A model generated the notes under the pieces. The model saw only the letters and a program-made list of their open reading frames with translations. It was not told the DNA's origin and did no database searches. From Steroidobacteraceae bacterium (lineage in GTDB: Bacteria > Pseudomonadota > Gammaproteobacteria > Steroidobacterales > Steroidobacteraceae): 49,241 bases of DNA. Below, piece after piece: positions 7,755-49,241 of the stretch (the stretch's first letter is position 1; every line of letters begins with the position of its first letter). Position numbers and translations under genes: made by a program. The stretch spans positions 1 to 49,241 of the forward strand of contig DASWBL010000057.1 in the NCBI GenBank assembly GCA_036390615.1, read 5' to 3'.

Positions 7755-9130
7755 GTAGTTACCCGCATATGAAAGGATTTTGGCCGCGTCAGATGCTCAA
7801 AGCCGACCACCGACAGTGTGCAGCCTCGTCCTGAATCTTTAACGCCAACCCAGGCAAGTGCCGGATCCAAGTAGTCGCACCGATTCATGAACCAGGTGCC
7901 GGTCTGTACCTGTCCGCCAATTTCCAGTGACGCCGCCTCATCGCGGGTCCAAATCGCCGCCGTGAGACCAAAAGGGCTGTCATTCATCAGGGCTACTGCT
8001 TCGCGGTCCGAATGCACCTTCATGATACCGGCGACGGGGCCAAAGATCTCCTCGCGCATTACCGAAGATTTTAGCGGTGCATCCAGCAGCAATTGCGGCG
8101 CGAGATACGGAGTACCCGTCATACTCCGCGGAAACGCACGCTCGTCAATGGCTGGCCGAGCACCGGCTTCGACGGCCGCGCGCAGCTGCTGACGGATCCC
8201 ATCGGCCGCTGCAGTTCGAACTACCGGACCGAGCGTAACGGACGGATCTAGCGGATCGCCCAGCCGGTATTGCTGGATCAATTCGACGCACCCGGCGGTG
8301 AATCGGTCGTGAATGCTCTCATGGACGAAAATGCGCTGCAGGCCACAACAAGACTGGCCGGAATTGAAATACGCGCCGTCGACAATATTTTCAATCGCGT
8401 GCGCCACGTCGGCGTCGTGCCGCACATACACTGGATCGCATCCGCCAAGCTCAAGTCCTACGCCAATAAAGCGCTCGGCCGCCACCCGCTGCACGGCGTG
8501 GCCTCCGGCAACGGATCCGGTGAAAGCGACAAAATCGACGCGGCCATCACGGATTACACGCTCGGTATCGGCATGCTCCATATGAAGCACCTGGAAGACT
8601 CCAGCGGGCAATCCGGCGGTAGCAAAACATTCAGCAAAACGCTCTGCGCACAAGGGCGTCTGCGCCGAGTGTTTGAGTAAAACGACGTTACCGGCTAACA
8701 GCGCTGGCACCACGCTGTTGACGGCAATCAGGTAGGGATAATTCCAGGCCGCCACAGCGAATACGACACCGAGCGGCTCGCGATGAATGAAGCGGCGAAA
8801 TCCTGGCAACGGAGTAGGTTCCACATCGGCTAGCGCCGCCGCGGCGATGCTTGTCATGTGGCGGGCGCGCGCAACCGTGCTGCGCACCTCGTTGGGGGCG
8901 TAGCGGATGGGGCGCCCCATCTGCCAACTCAGTTCTTCGGCGATTTCCGTGGCCCGCGCTTCAAATTCGTGACAGAAACGCTCCATGATGGCCGCCCGTT
9001 CCGTGACCGGGACAGTTCTCCAATGCGGCTGCGCACCGCGGGCGCGCTGCAACGCCACCTCGATCTCGCCAGGCGAGGCGGCCGGACGCTCAGCGTATGT
9101 GCGTCCATCAACCGGACTGATGCATTTCAT
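7751..9130 (-). CDS. NAD(P)-dependent aldehyde dehydrogenase
   Basis: ALDH family with the catalytic Glu block VGLELGGCDP and the catalytic Cys block YFNSGQSCCGLQRIFVHES. I place the start at the ATG at 9130 (MKCISPVDGRTY), which shares one base with the GS-like gene stop (TGATG). The longer ORF reaching 9199 would overlap that gene by 70 nt. Confidence 0.88.
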   Translation of the reverse strand: MKCISPVDGRTYAERPAASPGEIEVALQRARGAQPHWRTVPVTERAAIMERFCHEFEARATEIAEELSWQMGRPIRYAPNEVRSTVARARHMTSIAAAALADVEPTPLPGFRRFIHREPLGVVFAVAAWNYPYLIAVNSVVPALLAGNVVLLKHSAQTPLCAERFAECFATAGLPAGVFQVLHMEHADTERVIRDGRVDFVAFTGSVAGGHAVQRVAAERFIGVGLELGGCDPVYVRHDADVAHAIENIVDGAYFNSGQSCCGLQRIFVHESIHDRFTAGCVELIQQYRLGDPLDPSVTLGPVVRTAAADGIRQQLRAAVEAGARPAIDERAFPRSMTGTPYLAPQLLLDAPLKSSVMREEIFGPVAGIMKVHSDREAVALMNDSPFGLTAAIWTRDEAASLEIGGQVQTGTWFMNRCDYLDPALAWVGVKDSGRGCTLSVVGFEHLTRPKSFHMRVTT

Positions 9131-10497
9131 CAGATAATCTCGAAATACCGCGCCAGCTCCCAGTCCGTCACAGCGCGTTGGAACTGCCGTTCCTCCCACT
9201 CGCGGCTGGCTGCAAAATGAGCGACGAACGGTGCGCCAAATAATTCCTGCGCGGCTTTGGAATGCGCGAGTCGACCTGCTGCCTCACTCAGCGTCCGTGG
9301 CAGCTGTCGCTTAGCGGGCATTTTGCGTTCGTACGCGTTGCCGGTAATCGGCTCGTCCGGTTCAATCCTGTGCTCGATGCCCCACAGACCTGAACCGATT
9401 GCTACTGCAATTGCCAGATAGGGGTTGATGTCGGCGGCCGCGATGCGATATTCCACGCGCTGGCTCTTGCGGCCTCCCTGGATTACCCGCAGGGCACAGG
9501 TGCGGTTTTCAATGCCCCAAGTGGCCGATGTCGGGGCCCAGAATCCTGGCACCAGTCGCGAGTAACTGTTGACCGTCGAGGCCACCATTGCGAGCAACTC
9601 CGGCATCAGCTGCTGTTGGCCGCCTACAAACCACCGCAGCTCGTCGGAGATTGCGCCCGGTTTGCCTTCATCGTGAAACGCGGCCGAACCATCTTTGCGG
9701 ACCATTGACACATGCAGGTGGCCGCTTTGGCCGGGAAGCTTTTCGGACCACTTGGCCATAAAGGTCGCCATCAGGCCGCGACGCTGCGCGAAGACCTTGG
9801 CAAAAGTCTTGAACAGCGCAGCGCGGTCGGCCGCCTCCAGCGCTTCGGTGTAGTGCAGTGCCGCTTCGATAACGCCGGGGCCAGTTTCGGTATGCAGGCC
9901 TTCGATCGGCATCCGCATGTCGGTGGCCAGCTGCAGCAACGCTTGGTAAAGTTCAGCGTGCACGGAGCTACGCAACACCGAATACCCAAAGTATCCGGGC
10001 GTCATATTTTTGAGCCCGCGATAGCCTTTCTCGCGCACGCTGTCGGGTGTCTCGTTAAAAAGGAAGAACTCGTATTCGGCCGCCGCTGATGCAGCGTAGC
10101 CCATATCAGCAGCGCGCTTAATCACACGTCGCAGTGTTGCGCGCGGACAGACGTCTTCGGCGGTGCCTGTGAATTCTCCCAGGAAGAGCAGCATGTTGCC
10201 TTCGAAGGGCAATGCCCGGCAGGTCTCCGGTAATAAACGGACCTGTGCATCGGGAAAGGCCGTGTGCCAGCCGGTGAAAGTAATATTGTCGTATTGTTGG
10301 TCGTTCGAGTCCCAGCCCAACACGACATCGCAAAAGGCAATGCCTTTATCGAGCGCAGTAAAGAATTTCTCCCGGTCAATGTATTTGCCACGCAGAATCC
10401 CGTCGTTGTCGAAGATTCCGACTTTTACGTGCTGCAGATTGCGCTCCTGGACAATGGCGCGGGCCTGTGCAGTCGTACGCACCTCATCAGGCTGCAT
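9130..10497 (-). CDS. Glutamine-synthetase-family protein, gamma-glutamyl-amine ligase type (PuuA/GlnA4/IpuC-like)
   Basis: 455 aa with a GS beta-grasp N-terminus (HVKVGIFDNDGILRGKYI) and a catalytic-domain block (GQSGHLHVSM, NSYSRLVPGFWAP, RVEYRIAAADINPYLA). It sits first in a coupled trio with ALDH and Fe-ADH, the context seen for gamma-glutamylation pathways rather than housekeeping glnA. Confidence 0.8.
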   Translation of the reverse strand: MQPDEVRTTAQARAIVQERNLQHVKVGIFDNDGILRGKYIDREKFFTALDKGIAFCDVVLGWDSNDQQYDNITFTGWHTAFPDAQVRLLPETCRALPFEGNMLLFLGEFTGTAEDVCPRATLRRVIKRAADMGYAASAAAEYEFFLFNETPDSVREKGYRGLKNMTPGYFGYSVLRSSVHAELYQALLQLATDMRMPIEGLHTETGPGVIEAALHYTEALEAADRAALFKTFAKVFAQRRGLMATFMAKWSEKLPGQSGHLHVSMVRKDGSAAFHDEGKPGAISDELRWFVGGQQQLMPELLAMVASTVNSYSRLVPGFWAPTSATWGIENRTCALRVIQGGRKSQRVEYRIAAADINPYLAIAVAIGSGLWGIEHRIEPDEPITGNAYERKMPAKRQLPRTLSEAAGRLAHSKAAQELFGAPFVAHFAASREWEERQFQRAVTDWELARYFEII

Positions 10498-10627
10498 GCA
10501 TCTGGCTCCTTAAATGATGGCGGTTCCTGCGTTTTGAGTACACGCGGCTCGCCGTAGCGATTTGCCAAATACCTGAAGGGCAAATATCCGCCAATGAACC
10601 TGGTCTGGCAATATGCAAAGACTCCGC

Positions 10628-11419
10628 TTACTCAGGGGATGCCAATATCGCGACGGCCTGTTCCCACAGAGCATCGGTTGCCGCCGCCACAACCCGACCG
10701 TCGGAGCCTGCTCCGAGCGGCTTTCCATGCCAGTCGCTGAATTTTCCACCGGCGCCCTGGACCACAGGAATGAGCGCCTGAAAGTCGTGCGGCTTAAGCG
10801 CTGCCTCAATGACCAAGTCGCAGTGCCCCGAAGCCAGCATGCCGTAGAGATAACAATCCCCGCCAAAGCGGCGCAATGCGGCCCGGCTCGTTAGCCGGTC
10901 AAATCGCTGGCGATCCGCCGGGGCAAACGTGTCGGCCGTCGTGGCATAGACCCGGGCTTCTTCGATATTCCGGCAATTACTAGAGCGTACCGCGGCGCCG
11001 TTAAACTGGGTCGGCAGACCCTCACATCCTACCCAGCGCTCATTCAGGGCGGGCGCCTCTATAATCCCGAGTACTGCCTTGTCGCCGAATAGTAAAGCGA
11101 TAAGTGATCCAAAGACGGGAAAGCCGGTGATGAAGCTTTTTGTGCCGTCGATTGGATCAAGAACCCAGGTAAATTCCCCGCCGGCTTCGGCCGCGAATTC
11201 CTCTCCCTTTATGCCGTGCGCCGGAAAAGCGGCGCGGATCATGCGACGCATCTCGGTCTCGATGGTACGGTCCGCAATTGTGACCGGGCTGCGGTCGCTT
11301 TTCCTTTCAACAGCGAGCGGCATGCGAAAGTAGCGGCGGGCGATTTCACGGGCTATATCAGCGAGCTGCCCGGACAATTCCAAGGCCTTGGGAAAATCCG
11401 GGTGCTCAGCGAAACCCAT
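10628..11419 (-). CDS. Inositol-monophosphatase-family phosphatase (HisN/SuhB-like)
   Basis: It has the IMPase signature WVLDPIDGTKSF and the upstream motif SPVTIADRTIE. I place the start at the ATG at 11419 (MGFAEHPDF). The extension to 11515 would run antisense into the divergent kinase gene. Confidence 0.8.
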   Translation of the reverse strand: MGFAEHPDFPKALELSGQLADIAREIARRYFRMPLAVERKSDRSPVTIADRTIETEMRRMIRAAFPAHGIKGEEFAAEAGGEFTWVLDPIDGTKSFITGFPVFGSLIALLFGDKAVLGIIEAPALNERWVGCEGLPTQFNGAAVRSSNCRNIEEARVYATTADTFAPADRQRFDRLTSRAALRRFGGDCYLYGMLASGHCDLVIEAALKPHDFQALIPVVQGAGGKFSDWHGKPLGAGSDGRVVAAATDALWEQAVAILASPE

Positions 11420-11428
11420 AGACCTGAG

Positions 11429-11434
11429 TATAAT
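11429..11434 (+). promoter_or_regulatory. Candidate -10 box (TATAAT) for the kinase-DMGDH-BHMT operon
   Basis: A perfect TATAAT lies 30 nt upstream of the ATG at 11464, inside the 44-bp divergent gap. GGAAGG at 11453-11458 is a plausible RBS. No convincing -35 box was seen. Confidence 0.3.
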
Positions 11435-11463
11435 CAGCAGCCACCTGCTGCGGGAAGGCCAGA

Positions 11464-12357
11464 ATGGCGGATAAGGACGTCTTAGAGACCATCGCCGCGC
11501 TTCCGTGCTGGTCATCGCCGATCGAAGTCCATGCTCTGGTCGGTGGTCTCACCAACCGCAATTTTCGAGTTAACGACCGAGACCGGCAGTCATTCGTCGT
11601 TCGCATCGGACACGATATTCCCGAACATGGGGTGATGCGATTCAATGAGCTGGCGTCGGCACGCGCCGCATACGCGGCCGGCATCACCCCAGAGGTGATA
11701 TACGCCAGCAAAGGCATTCTGGTCAGTCGCTTTATAGAGGGTTCCGTGCTGACGCCCGCGCACGTGCGCGATCCGCAAATGCTCGAACGCATTGTCGCGC
11801 TGCTGCAGCGTTGTCACCGCGAAGTTGCGCAGCACTTTCAAGGTCCGGCGCTGATCTTCTGGGTATTTCAGGTGATCCGCGGTTACTTAACGGTGGTTGA
11901 GGCGCGCGGCGGCGGCCCGACCGGTCCCGAGCTCAAGGTAATGGCCGCTCGGGCAGCGCGGCTTGAGCAAGCCGTGGGCCCGGTGCGGATTGTATTTGCC
12001 CATAACGACCTGCTCGCAGCCAATCTAATAGATGACGGTAAACGACTTTGGCTGATCGACTGGGACTATGCTGGTTTTAACAGTCCGTTGTTTGATCTTG
12101 CCAATTTATCTACTAACAACGAGCTGTCGCCGGATCTTCAGGAGGCGATGCTCAATCAATACTTCTGCGAGCCGATCAACCCCGACGTGCGCCGTGGTTT
12201 CGCTGCAATGCAATGTGCCTCATTGTTGCGCGAGACTTTATGGGCGGCGGTTTATGGGCTCACATCGACCATAGCCTTCAATTACCGCAGTTACGGTGAC
12301 AACTACCAAAAGCGATTCGAGCGCAACTGGCTGGAGTTCGAGCAGCACTATGGGTGA
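11464..12357 (+). CDS. Choline/ethanolamine-kinase-family (APH-fold) small-molecule kinase
   Basis: 297 aa with the N-terminal motif LVGGLTNRNFRV and a Brenner/catalytic-loop block FAHNDLLAANLIDDGKRLWLIDWDYAGFNSPLFDLANL. Its stop overlaps the next gene's start by 8 nt (ATGGGTGA at 12350-12357). Confidence 0.72.
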   Translation: MADKDVLETIAALPCWSSPIEVHALVGGLTNRNFRVNDRDRQSFVVRIGHDIPEHGVMRFNELASARAAYAAGITPEVIYASKGILVSRFIEGSVLTPAHVRDPQMLERIVALLQRCHREVAQHFQGPALIFWVFQVIRGYLTVVEARGGGPTGPELKVMAARAARLEQAVGPVRIVFAHNDLLAANLIDDGKRLWLIDWDYAGFNSPLFDLANLSTNNELSPDLQEAMLNQYFCEPINPDVRRGFAAMQCASLLRETLWAAVYGLTSTIAFNYRSYGDNYQKRFERNWLEFEQHYG

Positions 12358-14794
12358 TTTTCCGGCACAAGCGCGCGCCGTAGTGATCGGCGGGGGCATT
12401 GTCGGTTGCTCCACAGCCTACCATCTGGCGAAGCTCGGCTGGACTGACACGCTCCTGGTTGAGCGTCATAAGCTGACTTCCGGTTCGACTCATCACGCCG
12501 CCGGGCTGGTCGGGCAATTACGTACCAGCGCTAATATTACGCAGCTGCTGGGATATTCGGTGGCTTTGTATAAGTCCCTGGAAGCGGAGACCGGCCTCGC
12601 CAGTGGTTGGAAGATGAACGGCGGCCTGCGTCTGGCGTGCAATGAATCGCGCTGGATTGAACTGAAGCGCCAGGCAACCAGCGCGCGCTCATTCGGTCTC
12701 GATATGCACTTGCTCTCGCCGCGCGAGGCGCGACAGTTGTGGCCGCTAATGGAAATCTCCGATCTGGTCGGCGCCGCGTTTCTGCCGACGGATGGTCAAG
12801 TCAATCCAAGTGACATTACCCTGTCGCTGGCGAAGGGGGCCCGCCAACGCGGCGTCAAGCTACTTGAGAACACGAACGTACTTGGCATCGAACTCGAACA
12901 TGGCCGCGTCACAGCGGTGCTGACTTCGCGAGGGCGCGTGGCATGCGATGTCGTTGTGAATTGTGCCGGCCAGTGGGCACGACAGATCGGTCTGCTGGCC
13001 GGAGTCAACGTGCCGCTGGTTTCGGTGCAACATCAATACCTTATTACCGACGCCATTCCGGGTGTGACGCCAGGCCTGCCGACGCTGCGCGACCCTGATC
13101 GCCTAACGTACTTTAAGGAAGACGTCGGCGGCCTAGTGATGGGTGGTTATGAGCCTAATCCTCGGCCCTGGGCGGTCGCGGGGTTCCCGGAAAATTTCAA
13201 TTTCCAGCTGCTGCCGGGTGATTGGGATCACTTCCAGCCGATGCTCAATCAGGCTATGACCCGTGTGCCCGCTCTCTCGCAAGCGGGTGTAAAGGAGCTT
13301 ATCAATGGGCCGGAGAGCTTTACGTCGGACGGTAACTTCATAATCGGACCCGCGACCGAAGTCAGCGGGTTTTATGTCGGTGCGGGATTTAACGCCTTTG
13401 GTATAGCTTCCGGAGGCGGGGCGGGGCAGGTACTGGCCCAGTGGGTCGCGGACGGTGAAGCGCCCTGCGATTTATGGCCGGTCGACTTCCGGCGCTTCGG
13501 GCCACCGCATGGAGACATCAATTGGGTGCGGGCTCGATCGCTCGAACTGTACGGTAAGCATTACTCGATCGCATGGCCCGGGGAAGAACATGCTGAGGGA
13601 AGATTGTGGCGGCGCTCGCCCCTTTACGAGCGACTGCAGGCTCACGGCGCCGTGTTCGGCGAAAAAATGGGATGGGAACGACCAAACTGGTTTGCCGCCG
13701 CCGGCGAATTAGCCAGCGATGAATACGGCTACACGCGACCAAACTGGTTCGTGGCGATGGCACGGGAACACGAGGCGACTCGCGAGCGGGTAGCCGTATT
13801 TGATCAGACCTCATTTGCGAAATTTCGACTCGCCGGTAAGGACGCGGAGCAGGCTCTAAGCTGGATATGCGCCAATGATGTGGCGCGACCGGTGGGATGC
13901 ATTACCTATACGCAGATGCTTAATCACCGCGGCGGCATTGAATGTGACCTGACGGTGGCGCGACTCGCTGCTGACGATTTTTATATCGTGACGGGTACCG
14001 GCTTCCTGACGCATGATTTCGATTGGATCAAACGGCAGTTACCCGTCGGACTCGATGTCCGGCTGACCGATGAGACCCTGCGTTACGCAGTGCTAGCACT
14101 TATGGGACCGCAGGCCCGATCGGTATTGGAGCGTTTGACGCGCGACGATGTCAGCAATGCAGCGTTTCCTTTTGGCCAAGCGCGCAGGTTGCATGTAGCC
14201 GACGTACCGTTGTTGGCGCTACGAATTACCTACGTGGGCGAGCTCGGCTGGGAACTCCATCTGCCGGTCGAGGAGGCGGCGACTGTCTACGAAGCCCTGA
14301 TGCACGCCGGTGCAGAGGTTGGCATTGCCAATGCCGGCTATCGGGCCATTGAGAGCCTGCGGCTCGAGAAGGCCTATCGTGCTTGGGGAGCTGATATCGG
14401 TCCCGATTACACGCCGCTGGAAGCCGGATTGAGCTGGGCCGTCAAGCTCAAATCCAAAATCCCGTTTCTGGGTCGCGAGTCGCTTGAAAAGCAGGCACGC
14501 GGGCCTCTTGTGAAATGGCTATGTGGATTTTCAACCGTTGATCCTGCAGTGATGCTGCTTGGCCGCGAGACCATTTATCGTGACGGCGAACGCGTAGGGT
14601 GGCTCGGAAGCGGTGGCTTCGGTCACACGCTAAAGACTAATATCGGCTACGGTTACGTGCGACAGCCGGGGGGCGTTAGCCGCGAGTACCTGTTGGCTGG
14701 ACATTACGAACTAGATGTGGCGACTGAGCGGATTCCGTGCCGCCTTCACTTGTCGCCGTTATACGACCCAAAGATGGAGCGAGTGCGGTCATGA
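12350..14794 (+). CDS. Dimethylglycine/sarcosine-dehydrogenase-like flavoprotein with a C-terminal GcvT (folate-binding aminomethyltransferase) domain
   Basis: It has the dinucleotide fold AVVIGGGIVGCSTAYHLAKLGW and the covalent-FAD histidine context LTSGSTHHAAGLVGQL. The C-terminal half is GcvT-like (VAVFDQTSFAKFRLAGKDA, RITYVGELGWELH, AGYRAIESLRLEKAY). I place the start at the ATG at 12350 (MGDFPAQ). Confidence 0.88.
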   Translation: MGDFPAQARAVVIGGGIVGCSTAYHLAKLGWTDTLLVERHKLTSGSTHHAAGLVGQLRTSANITQLLGYSVALYKSLEAETGLASGWKMNGGLRLACNESRWIELKRQATSARSFGLDMHLLSPREARQLWPLMEISDLVGAAFLPTDGQVNPSDITLSLAKGARQRGVKLLENTNVLGIELEHGRVTAVLTSRGRVACDVVVNCAGQWARQIGLLAGVNVPLVSVQHQYLITDAIPGVTPGLPTLRDPDRLTYFKEDVGGLVMGGYEPNPRPWAVAGFPENFNFQLLPGDWDHFQPMLNQAMTRVPALSQAGVKELINGPESFTSDGNFIIGPATEVSGFYVGAGFNAFGIASGGGAGQVLAQWVADGEAPCDLWPVDFRRFGPPHGDINWVRARSLELYGKHYSIAWPGEEHAEGRLWRRSPLYERLQAHGAVFGEKMGWERPNWFAAAGELASDEYGYTRPNWFVAMAREHEATRERVAVFDQTSFAKFRLAGKDAEQALSWICANDVARPVGCITYTQMLNHRGGIECDLTVARLAADDFYIVTGTGFLTHDFDWIKRQLPVGLDVRLTDETLRYAVLALMGPQARSVLERLTRDDVSNAAFPFGQARRLHVADVPLLALRITYVGELGWELHLPVEEAATVYEALMHAGAEVGIANAGYRAIESLRLEKAYRAWGADIGPDYTPLEAGLSWAVKLKSKIPFLGRESLEKQARGPLVKWLCGFSTVDPAVMLLGRETIYRDGERVGWLGSGGFGHTLKTNIGYGYVRQPGGVSREYLLAGHYELDVATERIPCRLHLSPLYDPKMERVRS

Positions 14795-34659: not shown

Positions 34660-35120
34660 ATCGCCTCCTTTGCTAATTACATTAGACCGTCAGCGATATT
34701 CTCACTGCAATATTGATCTCACTCTATAGTCACCCGCCGCAGTTTGTCGTCAGGAGCATCCTACGTCATTGGATTGTGTCACCGATGCTTGTCATTACTT
34801 CTGCACTAAGGCGTATGGAAGAACTAATTAGTTGGCGCGATTCCTGTTTGGCGACATGAGTGAAAGTTGAGCACCTACTTAACTGCCGACTGAATCATGA
34901 TCGGCGTTCTTTGCTGGCGCTGTTCCACAAACGCCTTCCGATGTGCGCGATGCTTTGTCTGTCAATGCAGACAATGTCCTCCGGGCAGGCCGCGGGGCGG
35001 ACTCAAAAGCGGTTGTAGGTCATTTCTTGCAGTTAACGAGGGTACTCACCGATAGGGCAATGCAGCGTCCTGATGGATCCTCATATACGCCGAAATTCTC
35101 GGCAGACGGAGAGCGCCGTG

Positions 35121-35669
35121 ATGAACCGATATGTAAACGTACTAACGAAATCTGCAGTGGTGCTGCTCGTACTGAGCTGGGGAAGCCTGTCGTCGGCCAT
35201 GAATATGGGAAAGGTTGACGTCAGCGTGGACCAGACCCTACAGGCATTTTATGCCCAAAATCCCAGTCACCGCGAACTCGTGAACAAGGCCGCCGGTGTG
35301 CTGGTGTTTCCTCGCGTGACTAAGGCTGGCGTTGGGGTCGGCGGCGAACACGGCGAAGGCGCACTGCTCGTCAACGGAACCGTTGTGGCGCATTACCTGG
35401 TGAGCGGAGCGTCGCTGGGCGCAACGGTCGGCGTCGGTAAGCACTCCGAAATTATTCTATTTATGACTTCGGAGGCACGCGAGGAATTTCAGCGCAGCCA
35501 CGGATGGACGGTTGGCGCGGATGCCGGAGTGGCAGTTGCATCTGCCGGCGCTGGCCATGAATACGACACCGAAACGCTGAAACGCCCAGTGCTGTCATTC
35601 GTCTTGGGTGAGCACGGTCTGATCGGTGACTTGTCGCTGCAAGGCGCCAAAATTACGCCGATTGTTTGA
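35121..35669 (+). CDS. Secreted SYLF/Ysc84-like (DUF500) lipid-binding domain protein
   Basis: I place the start at the ATG at 35121, preceded by GGAGAG, giving the signal peptide MNRYVNVLTKSAVVLLVLSWGSLSSA. The domain blocks are AGVLVFPRVTKAGVGVGGEHGEGALL, GASLGATVGV and GWTVGADAGVAVA. Confidence 0.78.
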   Translation: MNRYVNVLTKSAVVLLVLSWGSLSSAMNMGKVDVSVDQTLQAFYAQNPSHRELVNKAAGVLVFPRVTKAGVGVGGEHGEGALLVNGTVVAHYLVSGASLGATVGVGKHSEIILFMTSEAREEFQRSHGWTVGADAGVAVASAGAGHEYDTETLKRPVLSFVLGEHGLIGDLSLQGAKITPIV

Positions 35670-40790: not shown

Positions 40791-41747
40791 ATGACGCAGA
40801 CTATTCCCCGGCGGCGCATAGCCGTTGCGCTAGCGCGCTGGCTAGACTCCGGTGTTGGCGACACGCCCAGTGACAACGACGACCGTATTGACTGGCTGCG
40901 CACGCTGCCCTTTATAGCTCTGCATCTGGGCTGCTTCGGTGTGATCTGGGTCGGCGTGTCGGGCTTTGCCGTCGCAACGGCAATCGCGCTCTATGCCGTG
41001 CGCATGTTTGCCCTGACTGGTTTTTACCACCGCTATTTTTCGCATCAGGCCTTTCGAACGTCGCGTACGCTGCAGTTTATCTTTGCCGCCATCGGGGCCA
41101 CCTGCGTTCAGCGCGGTCCGTTATGGTGGGCCGCGCACCATCGTAACCATCATCGCTACGCCGATAGCGGGCGCGATCCGCATTCACCGCTGCTGCGCGG
41201 ATTTCTGTGGAGTCACTTAGGCTGGTTTCTAACGCCGCGCGGATTCCGTACGGACTGGAATGTCATCGGGGATCTGGCGCGCTTTCCGGAGCTGCGGTTG
41301 TTGGATCGATTTGACATCCTGATGCCGACCGTGCTGGCAGTCGCTCTTTATGGTTTCGGTCAGCACCTTCACAACGCTCATCCCAGTCTTGGGACCGACG
41401 GCATGCAATTGCTGGTCTGGGGACTGTGCATTTCTACTGTGGCGCTTTTCCACGCAACCTTCATGATTAATTCCCTCGCACATCGCCTCGGATCACGTCG
41501 CTTCAGCACGCGCGATGCGAGCCGTAACAACTGGCTGCTGGCGCTGTTTACGTTCGGCGAAGGTTGGCACAATAATCACCACCGCTTTCCAGGCGCCGCC
41601 CGGCAAGGCCTTTACTGGTGGGAGTACGATTTGACCTATTACGGCCTTAGCCTTCTGGCGATACTTGGACTGGTGCACGACCTGCGGCCATATCCCGCCA
41701 ATCTGCGCACCGCGGAACGCATCAATGTAGTCGGGAGCTCGCCGTGA
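40791..41747 (+). CDS. Membrane fatty-acid (acyl-CoA/acyl-lipid delta-9-type) desaturase
   Basis: 318 aa with three histidine boxes in canonical order (HRYFSH, HHRNHHRYAD, HNNHHRF) and flanking TM segments. Confidence 0.88.
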   Translation: MTQTIPRRRIAVALARWLDSGVGDTPSDNDDRIDWLRTLPFIALHLGCFGVIWVGVSGFAVATAIALYAVRMFALTGFYHRYFSHQAFRTSRTLQFIFAAIGATCVQRGPLWWAAHHRNHHRYADSGRDPHSPLLRGFLWSHLGWFLTPRGFRTDWNVIGDLARFPELRLLDRFDILMPTVLAVALYGFGQHLHNAHPSLGTDGMQLLVWGLCISTVALFHATFMINSLAHRLGSRRFSTRDASRNNWLLALFTFGEGWHNNHHRFPGAARQGLYWWEYDLTYYGLSLLAILGLVHDLRPYPANLRTAERINVVGSSP

Positions 41748-43255: not shown

Positions 43256-43951
43256 ATGCTGCCTGCTAATCCGCAATTACTCGATTCATTGGCTGCGGAA
43301 TACGTACTTGGAACGCTTCGCGATCCAGCGCGCCGCAGGGTGGCGCGCTGGAATCATGACCTAGCCGAAATGCAGCGTGCCGTGCAGCGCTGGGAAAATC
43401 TGCTTCTGCCGCTGGCCCTGGCACTGCCACCGATTGAACCCCCATTCGAGGTCTGGATCGGCATTCGCCGCCGCATTGAATTCCGTCGATCCAGCAGTAC
43501 AACGAAGGGGTCAGCTCGCGATCGTCCGTGGCGATGGGCTGCCGCAGCAGTCGTACTGCTAGGTCTTATTATTGCACTTTGGTTGGGACCGACGCGTGAA
43601 CTGCCGCCGCATGAAGTTGCAGATGTGACCGCTGGAAACGGCCAATTGCTCTGGCGTATCGTCGTTAATGCGACGCAGGATACGTTGCGCGTTCGGGCGA
43701 TTGCGCCGGAGCGACATAGCCCGCGCGAGGACTTTGAGCTTTGGGCTTTGCCTGCCAAGAGCGGCAGCCCGGTATCACTCGGTCTGATGCCGGCACAAGG
43801 AGAGGTCAGACATCGACTCAACGCCAACCAACGCGAAGCATTGCGCGTTGCCGCCAAGATTGCGGTCAGTTTGGAACCCAGTGGCGGTTCGCCGGTCGGA
43901 GCCCCAACCGGACCGGTTGTGCACGTTGCCGACCTGCAGCGGTCTGGGTAA
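43256..43951 (+). CDS. Anti-sigma factor, RskA (anti-sigma-K) family
   Basis: 231 aa with an N-terminal ASD-like helix region (LAAEYVLGTLRDPARRRV..), a single TM (WRWAAAAVVLLGLIIALWL) and a C-terminal RskA-like domain (FELWALPAKSGSPVSLGLMP..IAVSLEPSGGSPVGAPTGPVV). Confidence 0.7.
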   Translation: MLPANPQLLDSLAAEYVLGTLRDPARRRVARWNHDLAEMQRAVQRWENLLLPLALALPPIEPPFEVWIGIRRRIEFRRSSSTTKGSARDRPWRWAAAAVVLLGLIIALWLGPTRELPPHEVADVTAGNGQLLWRIVVNATQDTLRVRAIAPERHSPREDFELWALPAKSGSPVSLGLMPAQGEVRHRLNANQREALRVAAKIAVSLEPSGGSPVGAPTGPVVHVADLQRSG

Positions 43952-44200: not shown

Positions 44201-45460
44201 ATGGATGTCAAGGCCATTGGATCTGCCCTGCGAGCGAAATCGCCGTGGTATTGGGTCCGTGTGGCGGTGATCGCTGTGCTCGGTATGCTGATCAGTCACT
44301 GGTTGGCCATTCGTACGCCTTATTGGCTGGTGGATTTTCGCCTGTCGGCCTACCAACTCCTGACCAGTGCCGGGTCGCGCAAGCCGCAATTTCGGCACAT
44401 CGACATCGTGCAGATTTCAGATGATGAATTCTGGAAAGGCGAGCTCGCCGGCCGCCGACCGACCAAGCGCACTTATATTGCGAAGCTCGTCAAATCTATC
44501 TGCCACGGCGGCGCGACGGCGATAGCCCTGGATTTTGATTTTCGCTCGCCAGCGGTGGACGGCAGCCTGGCAAATCACCCGGATTACGAATCCGAGACCG
44601 CGGATTTGGCGCAGGCCGTCAATGACGCTTCGACACACTGCAAGATCATTTTGCCAAGGACGCTGAACTGCCCAGATCCACCTGATGGCCTTTGCAATTC
44701 CGAGCCCAGCGTCCTTGATGCCTACCACTTTGATCCCGATCGCGTCTCTTGGGGGTATATCAACCTACCGGAGGACGTGCGGCAGGTCCCGTTGCGGCGC
44801 TCCAATGTCGATCGCGGAACTCTCGACTCCTTCTCGCAGGCCATTGCGGCGGCGGACACCGGGCAACAGCAGTCGCTGGCGGCACCACGCCAGTTCCCCT
44901 ACGGCAGCTTTATCGCCGAGCGAGCGTTTCAGGATGCCGATGTTGTAATCCAGGCCGGCAAAGTGCTTGCCAGCAGCGATCGCGAGCTCGCCAGTATTTT
45001 TAATGGCAATACCGTACTGATCGGCGGCTCCTGGCACGGCTACGCTTACGGCCGTGGCCCGATCGCGGACAATCACGCCACACCCGTCGGCCTGATGCCT
45101 GGCATTTTCCTGCACGCCAACTACGCAGCGGCGATTTTGGATGGGCGCACCAATCCGCCCGCCAGCGATCTGCTGAGCTATATTCTGGACGTGCTCATTG
45201 TTGCGTTGATTGGCGTCGCTTTTGCCCTGCCTATTAGTTGGTGGCGCCGCTGGCTGTGGATCGGCACGGCTGCGATAGCGTTAGTGGCTTTAACCTATTT
45301 CTTCTGGCAAAACGTCGGAGTATTCCTTGAGATAACGATTCCGGCCGTATTGTTGTTAATCCACTCGCTCTTCGACGAATACATGAAAATGCGCGAAGAG
45401 CTGGTTAACCTACGGACCGAGGTCGCGAATCTTCGCAAGCGCGCAGCGGCCGGATCATGA
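44201..45460 (+). CDS. CHASE2-domain membrane sensor with no recognisable output domain
   Basis: 419 aa with an N-terminal TM (WYWVRVAVIAVLGMLISHWLAI). CHASE2-like blocks are IDIVQISDDEFW, YIAKLVKSICHGGATAIALDFDF, VLIGGSW and TPVGLMPGIFLHANYAAAIL. Three C-terminal TM segments are followed by only a roughly 25-aa coiled tail (MREELVNLRTEVANLRKRAAAGS). Confidence 0.78.
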   Translation: MDVKAIGSALRAKSPWYWVRVAVIAVLGMLISHWLAIRTPYWLVDFRLSAYQLLTSAGSRKPQFRHIDIVQISDDEFWKGELAGRRPTKRTYIAKLVKSICHGGATAIALDFDFRSPAVDGSLANHPDYESETADLAQAVNDASTHCKIILPRTLNCPDPPDGLCNSEPSVLDAYHFDPDRVSWGYINLPEDVRQVPLRRSNVDRGTLDSFSQAIAAADTGQQQSLAAPRQFPYGSFIAERAFQDADVVIQAGKVLASSDRELASIFNGNTVLIGGSWHGYAYGRGPIADNHATPVGLMPGIFLHANYAAAILDGRTNPPASDLLSYILDVLIVALIGVAFALPISWWRRWLWIGTAAIALVALTYFFWQNVGVFLEITIPAVLLLIHSLFDEYMKMREELVNLRTEVANLRKRAAAGS

Positions 45461-45489
45461 TTGGCAAGTGAATCTACGGGGGAGGGTGC

Positions 45490-45702
45490 ATGGTGACCAA
45501 AAAGCCGCGTCAATTGATCCTGGTTGGCCTGTCCATGATGGCGACACTGGCCCTAGCGCAGTCTGATATGCCGGGTGGTGTACCTGCGGCCAGCCGGGAT
45601 ATTTCCGCGATCAAGCCGGGTACCGCCAAACCGGCGCCGAAGCATGGCACCAAACACAAGAAGGCCAAACCGGCGGCCAGCACTCCGATACCGGCCAAGT
45701 AG
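45490..45702 (+). CDS. Small secreted Lys/Pro-rich protein
   Basis: 70 aa with a strong RBS (GGGGGAGGG, ending 5 nt before the ATG) and a signal peptide (LILVGLSMMATLALAQS). The mature part is basic and low-complexity (KPGTAKPAPKHGTKHKKAKPAA). It starts 29 nt after the CHASE2 gene. I recognise no family. Confidence 0.5.
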   Translation: MVTKKPRQLILVGLSMMATLALAQSDMPGGVPAASRDISAIKPGTAKPAPKHGTKHKKAKPAASTPIPAK

Positions 45703-45766
45703 ACGCCGGTTCGATGGCGCTTTTGCTAGACTGCGCTAGCGTGGTCTGCCTGAGAGGAATCAGCTC

Positions 45767-46240
45767 ATGAAAGGTGATCAAAAGATCGTGCAGCACCTGA
45801 ATAAGGTGCTGAAAAATGAATTGGCCGCTATTAACCAGTACTTTCTACATTCGCGCATGTACGGTAACTGGGGACTTAAGCGGCTGGAGGACCACGAATA
45901 TAAGGAATCCATTGACGAGATGAAGCACGCTGACCGGCTGATCGCGCGCCTGCTGTTCCTGGAAGGTGTGCCCGTGATGGACACCGGTAAGTTATTCATC
46001 GGCAAGGATGTCCGGGAAATGCTCGGCAACGATCTGAAGCTTGAAGAGCTGGCTCATAAGGATCTGCGGTCTGCAATTGCCGATTGTGAGGCCGGTAACG
46101 ATTTTGTGTCGCGGGAGCTTTTTAAGGCGATACTTGAATCTGAGGAAGAGCATATTGATTGGCTCGAAACCCAGATCGATTTGATTCAGCGCATCGGTCT
46201 GGAAAATTATTGCCAGTCACAGATGGCAGCGAACGGCTAA
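45767..46240 (+). CDS. bfr: Bacterioferritin
   Basis: 157 aa. [61 protein letters not shown] is a near-textbook Bfr sequence, including the ferroxidase ligands and the haem-ligand Met in the [10 protein letters not shown] block. Confidence 0.95.
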
Positions 46241-46263
46241 CGGCTAACGGCTGGAAACTGCCC

Positions 46264-48177
46264 ATGAGTGGGGATGTTGGGTTCGGTAACCACCCCGCGG
46301 GGGCGGCCCGACGCGCGTTGGCGCCAGCTGCCGTCGCATGCATGGGCGTAGTCTTTGGCGATATCGGAACCAGCCCGCTTTACACACTCAATGTCGCCGC
46401 CAAAGCATCGAGCCCAGGAGGTGTAATAGCACCGGAAGCGGTGCTGGGCATTGTCTCGCTGATCTTCTGGTCGCTGATCATCGTCATATCCATCAAGTAC
46501 GCGATCCTGATCATGCGCGCCGACAATCACGGCGAAGGCGGCATATTGGCGCTGCTGGCATTGGTCAGTCCGCGGCGCGCCAAAGAGAGCCGCCGCCGCG
46601 CAATCATGGTCATCGTCGGGCTTGTTGGCGCATGCCTGCTTTACGGCGATGGGGCCATTACGCCGGCAATCTCGGTACTCAGCGCGATCGAAGGCATCAA
46701 GGTATACGCCCCGGAATTGGATCGCATCATCGTGCCGCTTTCGGTCGTGATCTTGCTGGCGTTGTTTTTCGTCCAACGCAAAGGCACGTCATTTATTGGC
46801 GGGATTTTTGGGCCCATCATGCTTGTCTGGTTCGTGGTGATCGGTGTTCTCGGCATCATCGGTATTGTGCGGGCGCCCGTTATACTCGAGGCACTCAGCC
46901 CGCTTCCGGCCATAACTTATCTTTGGCATGCGGGACCGCTTGCCTTCGCGGTAATCGGTGGCGCCTTCCTTGCGGTGACAGGTGGTGAGGCGTTCTATGC
47001 CGACATGGGGCACTTTGGCCCGCTGCCCATTCGCGTAGCGTGGTTTGGCCTGGCGCTGCCGGCTCTGACTCTTAATTATTTCGGACAGGGCGGTTTGTTG
47101 CTGACCCAGCCCACTGCGATGAACAGCCCGTTTTACGAATTGGCACCGCGCTGGGGCCATTACGGGCTGGTAGTGCTGGCCACCGTTGCAACGATCATTG
47201 CCTCGCAGTCGATCATTTCCGGCGCCTATTCTTTGACCCAGCAGGCCGTGCGGCTTGGATTTCTGCCGCGGCTCACGGTCATCCACACGGCCGGCCGTGA
47301 AATTGGCCAAATATATGTGCCGTTCGTAAACTGGGCTCTCGCCGCCGCGACCCTCACTGCCGTAATTGGCTTTGGATCCTCCGACGCGCTGGCCGGGGCA
47401 TTCGGCATCGCAGTCTCGCTGCTGATGGCAATCACAACGCTCATGGCGACTTTTGTGGCGTTGCACTGGAAATACAACATCTGGGCAGTTGCCCTCGTCA
47501 ACGGTAGTCTATTGGCCTTGGATCTGCTGTTTTTCGCCTCGACTACAACCAAGCTATTCGACGGCGGCTGGTTCCCGTTGCTGATCACCGCGATCGTTGC
47601 CTTTCTAATGCTCACGTGGCGCAAGGGGCAGGAAATTATGGACACGGTCCGCCTTGAAGTGCGGCAGCGCGCAAAGGATTTCATGGCGGCAATTGCGGCC
47701 GATCCGCCGATACGTATTCCCGGGACCGCGGTTGTCCTCGGCCGCATGGCACAAGGCGTACCGTTGCCGCTCACACAAAATCTCAAGCACAATCACGTTT
47801 TGCATGAACATATCGTGCTGGTTGCGGTGACAATGGCCGAAATCCCGTACGTATCGGACGATGAGCGAGTCGTGATCATGCCTCTCTGCGGCGACTTGGC
47901 TCGAGTTGAGCTACGCTTTGGCTTCATGGAACAGCCGGACGTACCGCTCGGACTGAGGGTCGGCGAGGCTACTGGAAAACTTTTGCTCGGGGACCTTGAC
48001 CAAGTGACCTATTACACCGGACACGAGACGATTTGCCCTTTGGGCAAGCGCCGCGAGATGTCGCCATGGCGCGAGCGCGTGTTCGTGCTGATGAATAAAA
48101 TATCCCAGCGGCCGGGGGCGTATTTTAGAATTCCTAGTGCGCAGATCATGGAAATCGGCGTGGAGTTCGAGATCTGA
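46264..48177 (+). CDS. kup: KUP/HAK/KT-family potassium uptake protein
   Basis: It has the conserved N-terminal block GVVFGDIGTSPLYT, about 12 TM segments and a cytosolic C-terminal domain. I prefer the ATG at 46264 (MSGDVGF); the longer ORF from 46159 would overlap bfr. Confidence 0.93.
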   Translation: MSGDVGFGNHPAGAARRALAPAAVACMGVVFGDIGTSPLYTLNVAAKASSPGGVIAPEAVLGIVSLIFWSLIIVISIKYAILIMRADNHGEGGILALLALVSPRRAKESRRRAIMVIVGLVGACLLYGDGAITPAISVLSAIEGIKVYAPELDRIIVPLSVVILLALFFVQRKGTSFIGGIFGPIMLVWFVVIGVLGIIGIVRAPVILEALSPLPAITYLWHAGPLAFAVIGGAFLAVTGGEAFYADMGHFGPLPIRVAWFGLALPALTLNYFGQGGLLLTQPTAMNSPFYELAPRWGHYGLVVLATVATIIASQSIISGAYSLTQQAVRLGFLPRLTVIHTAGREIGQIYVPFVNWALAAATLTAVIGFGSSDALAGAFGIAVSLLMAITTLMATFVALHWKYNIWAVALVNGSLLALDLLFFASTTTKLFDGGWFPLLITAIVAFLMLTWRKGQEIMDTVRLEVRQRAKDFMAAIAADPPIRIPGTAVVLGRMAQGVPLPLTQNLKHNHVLHEHIVLVAVTMAEIPYVSDDERVVIMPLCGDLARVELRFGFMEQPDVPLGLRVGEATGKLLLGDLDQVTYYTGHETICPLGKRREMSPWRERVFVLMNKISQRPGAYFRIPSAQIMEIGVEFEI

Positions 48178-48253: not shown

Positions 48254-49241
48254 ATGAGTGCGTGGAATTCACCCGGGCCCAGGCGGCGCGCTCGCCCCGG
48301 CGTAATGACAGTTGCCTTGCTGGTCTTCGTGACAATAGTGGTCGGGTACCCGGTCCAAGCGAGACGATTGGCGTTGGTAATCGGCAACGACAGCTACCAG
48401 CACGCTGATCGGCTGAATAACGCCCGCACTGACGCCAAAGCATTCGCGGCCGTTCTATCGGCTACGAGCTTCACGGTCACTTTGAAGCAGGACCTTACGC
48501 TGCAAGCCATGAAAGAGGCGCTGCGAACGTTTAAAGCGCAAATCGCCGGCGGTGACGAGGTCGTGTTTTACTATTCAGGCCACGGCGTACAGCTCGATGG
48601 CAACAACTACCTGATCCCGATCGATACCGCGGGGCAAAACGCCGATCAGATCAAGGACGACTCGTTGTCGCTACAGCGAGTGTTGGATGACATGCAGGAT
48701 CAAAAAGCGAAATTCACGCTCGCGATCATTGACGCGTGCCGCGACGACCCGTTCAAGGGCAATGGCCGGGCAATCCGCAGTCGCGGCCTGGCGCCAGTCA
48801 CGGCGGCTACAGGCCAAATGGTCTTGTATTCGGCCGGAGCCGGACAGGAGGCGCTGGATAATCTTGGCGGCGCGGATAAGGATCCGAACGGTGTCTTTAC
48901 CCGCGTACTGATTAAAGAAATGCGAAAGCCGGGAGTGCCGGCGGAACAAGTACTCAAAAGCGTACGCGACCAAGTGGTACAAATGGCGAAGAGTGTGCAC
49001 CATGAGCAAGTGCCGGCACTTTATGATCAATCCATCGGTGAATTTTATTTTGTACCCGGCAACGCGGTGGCTGCCGCGGCGCCGACGCCTAGTATAGTGC
49101 ACGTGCAGACCGCTGATGAACGCGAGCAAACTTATTGGGATCGCGTCAAGGATAGCACCGATCCGGCGGATTTCACCGATTACAAGAAGCAGTTTCCGAA
49201 CGGGTCGCACGCGGCAGAAGCGGCGCTAATGCTGCGCAAGC
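48254..49241 (+). CDS. Secreted caspase-fold (peptidase C14) protein; 3' end lies outside the window
   Basis: This gene is not in the supplied ORF track because it has no stop within the window. Frame 2 is open from the ATG at 48254 (alternative ATG at 48305) to the window end. It has a signal/anchor segment MTVALLVFVTIVVGYPVQA. The caspase core is RLALVIGNDSYQH.. with catalytic His in VVFYYSGHGVQLDGNNYLIP and catalytic Cys in TLAIIDACRDDPF. A repeat-like tail follows (YWDRVKDSTDPADFTDYKKQFPNGSHAAEA). Confidence 0.82.
   Translation, partial: MSAWNSPGPRRRARPGVMTVALLVFVTIVVGYPVQARRLALVIGNDSYQHADRLNNARTDAKAFAAVLSATSFTVTLKQDLTLQAMKEALRTFKAQIAGGDEVVFYYSGHGVQLDGNNYLIPIDTAGQNADQIKDDSLSLQRVLDDMQDQKAKFTLAIIDACRDDPFKGNGRAIRSRGLAPVTAATGQMVLYSAGAGQEALDNLGGADKDPNGVFTRVLIKEMRKPGVPAEQVLKSVRDQVVQMAKSVHHEQVPALYDQSIGEFYFVPGNAVAAAAPTPSIVHVQTADEREQTYWDRVKDSTDPADFTDYKKQFPNGSHAAEAALMLRK

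Follow-up and report, generated by a model that had tools for sequence, protein, structure and literature searches.

A stretch of 49,241 nucleotides from a Steroidobacteraceae bacterium, here called the window, was derived from a soil metagenome. It encodes a membrane protein that consists of a CHASE2 sensor domain and its membrane helices, followed at once by a gene for a small secreted protein. This arrangement raises two questions, namely what the CHASE2 domain recognises and what a sensor can do when no transmitter is attached to it. The domain (Pfam PF05226) was reportedly defined by Zhulin et al. in 2003, and no ligand for it is defined in the literature surveyed.

The CHASE2 gene and its surroundings

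The features of the locus to which the following text refers are these:

44201..45460, + strand: gene of an output-less CHASE2 membrane protein (ORF of 419 aa; Pfam, AF2, hydropathy)
45461..45489, + strand: spacer of 29 nt from the CHASE2 stop codon to the partner ATG, read from the sequence
45478-45486, + strand: Shine-Dalgarno run GGGGGAGGG, 3-4 nt before the ATG at 45490
45490-45702, + strand: partner ORF, 70 aa
45490..45558, + strand: Sec signal peptide of the partner, MVTKKPRQLILVGLSMMATLALA, residues 1-23, ending in ALA (n-region KK..R, hydrophobic core, AxA site)
45559..45582, + strand: conserved motif QSDMPGGV, partner residues 24-31, predicted mature N-terminus and candidate docking motif (consensus match)
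45583..45702, + strand: variable "cargo" of the partner, a 39-residue basic Lys/Pro/Ala-rich tail plus the stop codon (composition, pI)
45704..45719, + strand: terminator-like hairpin and short T-rich run directly 3' of the partner stop (consensus scan)
45767-46240, downstream of the partner: bfr (Ferritin, Pfam)
ending at 48177, downstream of bfr: kup (K_trans, Pfam)
starting at 48254, given as the same strand in the initial annotation: caspase ORF that runs off the window end (Peptidase_C14, E 2.3e-36)

The CHASE2 match of the 419-aa protein covers residues 35-339 with an E value of 2e-20 and 73.9 bits, the Pfam gathering score being 26.3 bits. Hydropathy places hydrophobic segments at 17-39, ~322-345, 351-369 and 371-392, in agreement with the helices of the AF2 model at 15-37, 323-342, 347-372 and 379-418 (pLDDT 79.8, pTM 0.73). 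The layout is thus TM1 at 17-39, a periplasmic CHASE2 domain at ~40-320 and three TM helices at ~322-392, which is the 1 + 3 pattern described for CHASE2 (PMC3501461). A cytoplasmic tail of 28 residues (392-419, DEYMKMREELVNLRTEVANLRKRAAAGS) is modelled as a helix and ends at the stop codon, 45458-45460. With 16 residues before TM1, 28 after TM4 and nothing more, CHASE2 is the sole Pfam match in the polypeptide, and no kinase, cyclase, GGDEF/EAL, caspase, TIR or STAND domain was found in it. The initial annotation of this DNA had described the 1 + 3 topology, a coiled tail of about 25 residues, a 70-aa pre-protein with a signal peptide behind a strong ribosome-binding site 29 nt downstream and a caspase 2.8 kb downstream, past bfr and kup. 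On all these points, coordinates included, it proved accurate, the distance to the caspase being counted from the CHASE2 stop codon.

Foldseek searches of the PDB with two AF2 models gave no match at E<=1e-3 and a CHASE2 sequence profile search of the PDB found nothing, so that a caspase-like or other known fold for CHASE2 is unsupported by these searches. Among the defence-system models of PADLOC-DB 2.0 there was no match for the CHASE2 protein or its partner; only the separate caspase matched, to a generic caspase model.

The 419-aa protein is a genuine conserved form and belongs to a large family of proteins of ~400-470 aa in soil Gammaproteobacteria and Acidobacteriota. All 18 close homologues contain CHASE2 only and measure 271-455 aa, the CHASE2 ORFs in 92 related loci measure ~390-470 aa, and a profile search returned 440 cluster representatives at E<=1e-30, of which almost all of the top 150 have 380-470 aa. 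As a transmitter is lacking in hundreds of relatives, its absence is conserved. Moreover conservation extends through the TM region and the tail up to the final helix. The possibility raised beforehand that the gene is a truncated pseudogene of a longer orthologue is ruled out by this tail and by the matching length of the relatives. The residues D74, R85, D111, D113, E132, D192, R194, D290, H305 and N307, charged or polar, are invariant in the family, and the TM3-TM4 hairpin has the conserved polar residues Y366, Q370 and N371.

Some relatives do carry further domains: an N-terminal TIR_2 (P0033), an N-terminal nSTAND1 (P0085, P0096), a C-terminal Peptidase_C14 behind the TM helices (P0118), or a cyclase that is placed N-terminal and not C-terminal of CHASE2. 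A SIR2_2 gene immediately precedes one of the nSTAND1-CHASE2 genes. A tblastn search of a plasmid collection with the CHASE2 protein, aimed at canonical sensors such as the rhizobial cyclases, gave no match.

A secreted partner and its motif

The partner is predicted to be cleaved before QSD, leaving a mature protein of 47 aa with a pI of 10.5, a net charge of about +7, 8 Lys, 8 Pro and 9 Ala, of which the 39-residue tail is probably disordered. All five close homologues are 70 aa long with substitutions that favour codon position 3, and the Shine-Dalgarno run is kept in two of the nearest relatives (L002 and L023). Neither for the protein nor for its motif is there a family model in Pfam, NCBIfam or PADLOC. 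The hairpin behind the stop codon is a possible end of a two-gene operon, the consensus scan being weak, with 5 sites against 2.8 expected in shuffles. A search for RNA runs that contain this sequence found none.

The two genes are a cassette conserved in soil bacteria. A cassette was defined as a CHASE2 gene with an adjacent same-strand ORF that has a signal peptide and the motif [VI][DN][PST][ND]x[PTR]GG[APSV], the family consensus, or QS[DN]x[PT]GG[VA], the consensus of the window clade, which lies at the predicted signal-peptidase site. In the window the adjacent same-strand ORF has both, at a gap of 29 nt. Of the 90 related loci whose sequence extends far enough downstream, 60 have the motif in the next ORF, which begins between -17 and about +100 nt relative to the CHASE2 stop and across the family mostly at -17 to +49 nt, and in two more loci (L026, L063) the partner is directly upstream of CHASE2. 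A signal-peptide-like N-terminus is present in 50 of 51 distinct motif partners, which span two phyla. The two genes stand together in dozens of independent loci from metagenomes and MAGs, so their pairing is not due to chance. Strict motif partners are absent in about a quarter to a third of the loci, some of which show a lipoprotein or a degenerate form of the motif (PGAA or KGGL, for example), and none was found at the TIR-CHASE2 loci L101, L103 and L108 or at the nSTAND1-CHASE2 locus L105. By contrast, the gene after each of three cyclase-CHASE2 genes (L088, L106, L107) encodes a secreted, Cys-rich protein with the C-terminus ...EIDPNRPGGAK or ...EIDIHKPGGAK.

All-against-all BLAST clustering of the flanking ORFs in the 92 loci gave no other conserved neighbour; RskA, bfr and kup are common to the nearest relatives only. 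The initial annotation had suggested small secreted proteins and C14 peptidases as recurrent companions of output-less CHASE2. The former are the sole conserved neighbourhood feature, in more than 60 loci, and the latter are not conserved across loci.

Motif density is 3.56 per 1000 aa in the downstream ORFs and 0.018 per 1000 aa in a six-frame background of 570,000 aa, an enrichment of about 200-fold, and 43 of 77 downstream ORFs carry the motif, where shuffling leaves 0.4 of 77 on average. These counts contain some circularity, as the expression was refined on the loci in which it was counted, but the motif was first seen in 7 loci and recurred in 79 that were fetched independently. Within the 49-kb window QSDMPGGV is the only match in a real gene. 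A literature search for the motif strings returned no paper.

The position of the motif is variable: it can be N-terminal, internal or at the extreme C-terminus, and two to three copies may be present. The first copy lies <=45 residues from the start in 34 of 51 partners, often exactly at the mature N-terminus. The rest of the protein is exchanged freely, the cargo including basic tails, caspase+WD40, Ysc84, OmpA and TPR proteins. Motif subtype tracks the CHASE2 sequence clusters and cargo changes within a cluster, for instance from a 543-aa BamE-like protein to caspase+WD40 or from Lys-rich tails to a TM-anchored coiled coil, so that the motif follows the receptor and not the cargo. The basic, Lys/Pro-rich composition singled out at the outset is indeed present in the window protein, but the conserved partner feature is the short N-proximal motif and not the tail.

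In addition, three natural fusions (P0052, P0055, P0076) join CHASE2 through a fifth TM helix to one to three motif copies, which puts the motif in the compartment of the CHASE2 domain. The AF2 model of P0055 has a pLDDT above 90 in the CHASE2 part and below 50 in the motif region. The one exception is PIDPDK in the third copy, which reaches 50 or more and forms two isolated beta-bridges, a faint hint of docking at best. A mutual-information test of motif positions against columns of the CHASE2 alignment was dominated by phylogeny and uninformative.

Proposed docking and its alternatives

Judged from the sequence comparisons, the best explanation, with a probability of about 0.6, is that the motif of the co-encoded partner docks onto the periplasmic CHASE2 domain and that the two would constitute a self-contained cassette of a receptor and a secreted ligand or client. 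The 70-aa protein would be exported by Sec and cleaved after ALA, exposing (pyro)Gln-Ser-Asp-Met-Pro-Gly-Gly-Val, and the membrane protein translated along with the partner would then receive this short linear motif in its periplasmic CHASE2 domain. The motif and the CHASE2 module would be the constant parts, and everything C-terminal of the motif would be exchangeable cargo, which in the window would be the 39-residue polycationic, putatively disordered tail. We infer both the physical binding of the motif by CHASE2 and the function of the complex. Where a relative carries a class III cyclase at its N-terminus, cNMP synthesis would be set by docking. The output-less majority, the window protein included, would work without an enzymatic transmitter, and such a protein most likely serves as a tether or receptor in the inner membrane, at whose outer face it would hold or gate its partner. 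An onward signal, if any, would have to pass through the conserved three-TM bundle and the juxtamembrane helix to an unlinked protein.

The initial annotation had proposed signalling through a separate partner. As far as the adjacent small secreted protein is concerned, this agrees with the conserved pairing and with the natural CHASE2-TM-motif fusions; the part assigned to the caspase is not supported for this locus.

A more general claim can be made only tentatively, at slightly under even odds: that CHASE2 is a receptor for short peptide motifs, that the [VI][DN]P[ND]xPGG-type motif is its first defined cognate ligand, and that a periplasmic system of receptor plus tagged client operates in Acidobacteriota and soil Gammaproteobacteria and controls cNMP synthesis in the cyclase relatives.

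An alternative that we regard as unlikely is that the CHASE2 module is an enzyme that processes or modifies the client motif, for example by cleavage at or near GG or by attachment of a lipid or other group, in a one-to-one sorting or maturation system. The invariant charged and polar residues and the polar TM3-TM4 hairpin would suit an enzyme, as would the frequent placement of the motif at the mature N-terminus, and an output-less membrane protein is simpler to rationalise in this way. Nevertheless the module has no likeness to a solved enzyme in the Foldseek and PDB profile searches, and like a sensor it is found attached to cyclase, TIR and STAND domains. Moreover the free position of the motif and its occurrence in two or three copies are easier to reconcile with a docking motif than with a site of processing.

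Still less probable is a split CHASE2/caspase cell-fate module, in which the sensor would gate or send a signal to the caspase 2.8 kb downstream with the Lys-rich peptide possibly as substrate or co-factor. The window caspase has SGHG and DACR motifs and a hydrophobic N-terminal segment, so it is probably periplasmic, as are the CHASE2 domain and the peptide. Caspase domains also recur in the family, since the motif-bearing partners of L053 and L070 are themselves secreted caspase+WD40 proteins (motif, Peptidase_C14 and WD40) and P0118 is a CHASE2-TM-Peptidase_C14 fusion; moreover N-terminal caspase-CHASE2 fusions have been described (PMC3501461, PMC8195603). A downstream caspase gene is shared with L023, which is 89% identical, but besides L053 and L070 it is absent from the other ~85 loci. 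Synteny of the caspase, bfr and kup is limited to relatives of ~89% identity (L002, L022, L023, L033), and the three genes are absent around the other relatives examined, including homologues of ~54-58% identity that have the motif subtype of the window (such as L003, L004, L007, L010 and L024). The split CHASE2/protease module put forward in the initial annotation is thus not supported at this locus. Furthermore, two unrelated housekeeping genes and the terminator-like site after the small ORF separate the pair from the caspase, the visible 329 residues of which contain no motif.

A pairing devoid of joint function, with the small ORF spurious or untranslated or an unrelated secreted protein beside a decayed sensor gene, would suit a short, low-complexity peptide that is known from its sequence and matches no family model, but it is already strongly disfavoured by the frame, 70-codon length and Shine-Dalgarno run kept in five relatives with substitutions biased to the third codon position, by motif-bearing secreted partners in two phyla at ~200-fold enrichment, by the gene fusions and by the conservation of the CHASE2 tail and TM region.

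If the docking reading is correct, it would account for a widespread sensor module that lacks a transmitter, and it would show how soil bacteria link very different periplasmic proteins, caspases included, to one membrane receptor in a modular fashion. The short motif shared by the secreted partners is a testable candidate for what the CHASE2 domain recognises, and because it is conserved and self-encoded the ligand question can be taken to the bench with a synthetic peptide, QSDMPGGVPAAS. For this purpose the relatives with a cyclase would offer a convenient readout.

Comparison with known systems

The canonical CHASE2 sensors CyaD1, CyaD2 and CyaK of Sinorhizobium meliloti have the same module of a TM helix, a periplasmic CHASE2 domain and three TM helices. 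The only CHASE2 signal reported is that of CyaK, namely free ribosomal uL2, which is basic and intrinsically disordered (PMC7529298, PMC13001267); it was loosely defined as being of "protein nature" (PMC7529298) and parallels the basic and probably disordered partner in the window. Furthermore, cyclase-bearing relatives of the window protein have motif partners too. Unlike the canonical sensors, in which the cyclase is C-terminal, these relatives have it at the N-terminus, and the window protein is devoid of any transmitter domain. Its candidate ligand is self-encoded, adjacent and endowed with a short conserved motif, and no outer-membrane co-receptor of the NsrA type is encoded nearby.

A second group comprises CHASE2 proteins linked to caspase, STAND or TIR domains in bacterial systems of conflict or of an apoptosis-like kind, to which the relatives with TIR_2, nSTAND1 or Peptidase_C14 bear a likeness. 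The window protein differs in having no such domain, and the TIR and STAND forms examined have no motif partner. In the orthocaspase-CHASE2 (PMC3501461) and EACC2-caspase-CHASE2 (PMC8195603) proteins the domain was taken to be a receptor of small molecules, and no protein motif cognate to it was described.

The cassette can also be set beside two kinds of system in which no CHASE2 is involved. ComC-ComD and AgrD-AgrC are adjacent peptide-pheromone and receptor gene pairs of Gram-positive quorum sensing, in which a small secreted peptide gene likewise stands beside the gene of a membrane receptor that senses on the extracytoplasmic side. The motif subtype co-varies with the receptor clade, as does the specificity-determining part of a pheromone. 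However, the window receptor has no kinase domain by Pfam, and as the hosts are diderm the peptide would be released into the periplasm. Moreover the partners can be multidomain proteins of 600 aa, which does not fit a diffusible pheromone.

The exosortase/PEP-CTERM and sortase/LPXTG systems combine a constant module with variable cargo through a sorting signal. There too a short conserved tag is found on otherwise unrelated secreted proteins that are served by one dedicated multi-TM membrane protein. The CHASE2 module differs from the sorting enzymes in that no catalytic fold was recognised in it by Foldseek with two models, and the position of its partner tag is not fixed at a terminus. In addition, a sorting system has one enzyme for many dispersed substrates, whereas the relation of CHASE2 to its partner is one to one, as only about two stray, unexplained motif matches occur in the 570,000 aa of flanking sequence. 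If the docking is true, a receptor-plus-tagged-client system with swappable cargo, ranging from basic tails and a periplasmic caspase+WD40 to Ysc84, OmpA and TPR proteins, would be previously undescribed.

The CHASE2 gene of the window and its relatives

The window originates from a soil metagenome, and the part of it considered here contains the following features:

43256-43951, + strand: RskA_C-type anti-sigma factor gene, directly 5' of the CHASE2 gene
44201-45460, + strand: CHASE2 gene, an ORF of 419 aa with a Pfam CHASE2 match (E 2e-20, well over threshold)
29 nt between the CHASE2 gene and the next ORF, + strand: spacer containing GGGGGAGGG
45490-45702: partner ORF of 70 codons, with a canonical signal peptide ending in ALA
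45767-46240: bfr, after the partner
46159-48177: kup (longest ORF), after bfr and overlapping it by 82 nt
48254-49241, + strand: Peptidase_C14 caspase gene with SGHG and DACR motifs, running off the window end, C-terminal part missing

By hydropathy the CHASE2 domain is flanked by one transmembrane (TM) helix on its N-terminal side and three on its C-terminal side, and the AlphaFold2 (AF2) model (pLDDT 79.8) gives the same layout. The 1 + 3 TM topology with a short tail described in the initial annotation is thus borne out by the ORF, Pfam, hydropathy and the model, the tail being a helix of 28 residues. No ECF sigma gene adjoins the RskA_C-type gene. Before it come two genes whose ORFs overlap at 41744-41747, one for a fatty-acid desaturase and the other for a cyclopropane-fatty-acid synthase.

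The 18 closest homologues (32-89% identity) are all CHASE2-only proteins of 375-455 aa, save one fragment of 271 aa. Conservation in their alignment reaches the TM3-TM4 hairpin (Y..WQNxGxF.E..P) and the short tail (DEYxKMRxELxxLR). With homologues of like length and conservation through hairpin and tail, a pseudogene was rejected. Scans of genome and metagenome contigs yielded about 90 further loci, and in every complete one the CHASE2 ORF ends 10-30 codons past the fourth TM helix. Among 1.84 billion cluster representatives, a profile search returned 440 matches at E<=1e-30, and almost all of the top 150 have 380-470 aa. The genes come from uncultured soil Gammaproteobacteria, Steroidobacteraceae among them, and Acidobacteriota.

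The partner motif and its variable cargo

Inspection and all-against-all clustering of flanking ORFs showed that the neighbourhoods of the relatives differ completely save for the immediately downstream ORF. The window's 70-aa pre-protein, with its signal peptide and basic mature part (47 residues, pI 10.5, Lys/Pro/Ala-rich), was confirmed 29 nt downstream of the CHASE2 gene. An ORF bearing a short motif lies immediately 3' of the CHASE2 gene in 60 of the 90 loci with enough sequence, the strict motif being absent from about a quarter to a third of loci. These partners start from -17 to about +100 nt relative to the CHASE2 stop codon, frequently overlapping it, and 50 of 51 distinct ones have a signal-peptide-like N-terminus. 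The consensus of 61 instances is [VI][DN][PST][ND]x[PTR]GG[APSV]; in the window's clade it is QS[DN]x[PT]GG[VA], shorter by one residue and placed exactly at the predicted signal-peptidase site (QSDMPGGV, residues 24-31, in the window partner).

Motif density was 3.56 per 1000 aa in downstream ORFs against 0.018 per 1000 aa in a six-frame background of 570,000 aa, and 43 of 77 downstream ORFs had the motif against 0.4 per 77 after shuffling; the expression was refined on the same loci in which it was counted, and the enrichment is judged far too large for this to matter. Several of the few background matches are themselves motif proteins directly upstream of a CHASE2 gene (loci L026 and L063). 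Across the whole window the 70-aa ORF is the sole match in a real gene. Since composition varies while the motif recurs downstream, the small-protein link of the initial annotation stands as a conserved next ORF, and the conserved feature is the motif and not the Lys/Pro richness emphasised there.

Past the motif the partners are not related to one another, and their lengths span 66 to 620 aa. Their cargo may be a basic low-complexity tail, a small Cys-containing domain, a TM-anchored coiled coil, a CarboxypepD_reg, OmpA, Ysc84, DUF5818, BamE-like or TPR domain or, at L053 and L070, Peptidase_C14 followed by WD40 repeats. The motif subtype tracks the CHASE2 sequence cluster, and cargo differs inside one cluster. 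Position and copy number of the motif vary: it occurs N-terminally, internally or at the very C-terminal end, at times in two or three copies. Such behaviour fits a short linear motif for docking that lies in a disordered segment.

In the window's own CHASE2 clade, the partners at L003 (1877-2176), L007 (7331-7621) and L027/L028 carry a small, conserved two-Cys module, C-K-x-L-x(2,3)-K-G-L-K-G-x(5,6)-F-x-K-x-C, in place of the Lys-rich tail. The partner of a 57%-identical relative (L010, 7284-7733), with an N-terminal motif, EQLSAAREQL-type repeats, a C-terminal TM segment and RRRK, is a membrane-anchored coiled-coil version. The gammaproteobacterial relative L018 (55% identity) encodes a TIR_2/SEFIR protein of 178 aa (7628-8161, + strand) about 100 nt past the motif partner and, nearby on the opposite strand (9940-12789, - strand), a WD40 protein of 950 aa whose N-terminal sequence is TIR-like. 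Ysc84 is the cargo at L093 (6241-7224) and L098; the window also encodes a Ysc84-domain protein (35073-35669), 9 kb 5' of the cassette and without motif, which is probably unrelated to it.

Proposed recognition of the motif and the place of caspases

Three natural fusions (P0052, P0055 and P0076) continue the four-TM CHASE2 module with a fifth TM helix, after which the motif occurs one to three times. Such an arrangement locates the motif in the periplasm, next to the CHASE2 domain, and fusions of this sort are a classic type of evidence that two proteins act together. In the AF2 model of P0055 the CHASE2 part has pLDDT >90 and the motif region <50, apart from PIDPDK of one copy. We infer that the motif is what the periplasmic CHASE2 domain recognises in the partner that is encoded and translated together with it. 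That the module instead acts enzymatically on the motif seems unlikely: a search for PDB structural relatives of both AF2 models (window protein and P0055) found none, so the fold gives no hint of catalysis. Under recognition, the window's CHASE2 protein would tether a 39-residue polycationic tail on the periplasmic side of the inner membrane or control the release of that tail. Any onward signal would need to travel by way of the conserved TM bundle and the juxtamembrane helix, and its recipient would be an unlinked protein.

The initial annotation also proposed a split CHASE2/caspase module, which is unsupported at this locus. The downstream caspase is shared only with the 89%-identical relative L023, bfr and kup intervene, a weak terminator-like site lies 3' of the small ORF, and the visible part of the caspase has no motif. 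As kup in relative L002 is called at 611 aa, the true start of the window's kup probably lies about 180 nt 3' of 46159. At its N-terminus the caspase has an Arg-rich segment and then a hydrophobic one; export or membrane anchoring is probable, and hence a periplasmic location is likely. Within the family as a whole, caspases are found repeatedly, both in fusions and as cargo carrying the motif, and the original intuition was not baseless. The secreted L053 (2430-4292) and L070 (6208-8043) partners, of 611-620 aa, have signal peptide, motif, Peptidase_C14 and WD40 repeats, with the start codon 1 nt past the CHASE2 stop codon; even taken alone, a caspase-WD40 protein in the periplasm is unusual.

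Comparison with other CHASE2 systems

Added domains occur in only a few of the nearest relatives: N-terminal TIR_2 (P0033), nSTAND1 (P0085, P0096) or class III cyclase (P0095), and a C-terminal TM helix with Peptidase_C14 (P0118). No motif partner was seen at the three TIR-CHASE2 loci and one STAND-CHASE2 locus inspected. All three cyclase-CHASE2 loci (L088, L106, L107) have one, a secreted protein of 120 aa that is rich in Cys and whose C-terminus reads ...EIDPNRPGGAK or ...EIDIHKPGGAK. The motif partner thus accompanies a CHASE2 module with a measurable cytoplasmic output, which favours a ligand-receptor relationship. L105 (3919-7517) has an nSTAND1-CHASE2 gene encoding 838 aa, with a SIR2_2 gene 8 nt 5' of it. 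The pair, for which PADLOC has no model, looks like a conflict or defence-type effector with a STAND NTPase, CHASE2 being the membrane or sensor part.

CHASE2 is a known sensor module, described in caspase-, STAND- and cyclase-linked forms and viewed as a small-molecule receptor (PMC3501461, PMC8195603). Only one signal has been reported, free ribosomal protein uL2 for the CHASE2 cyclases of S. meliloti; this protein is basic and disordered, and each of its halves is active (PMC7529298, PMC13001267). As Pfam, NCBIfam and PADLOC hold no model for the partner or motif, and a literature search for the motif strings returned no paper containing them, the pairing of an output-less CHASE2 protein with a motif-tagged partner looks like an undescribed form of CHASE2 system. 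Some uL2 stretches resemble the motif loosely, such as ...YDPNR... and ...NPVDHPHGGG... in E. coli RplB, maybe by coincidence. The motif is a concrete candidate ligand for the CHASE2 domain.
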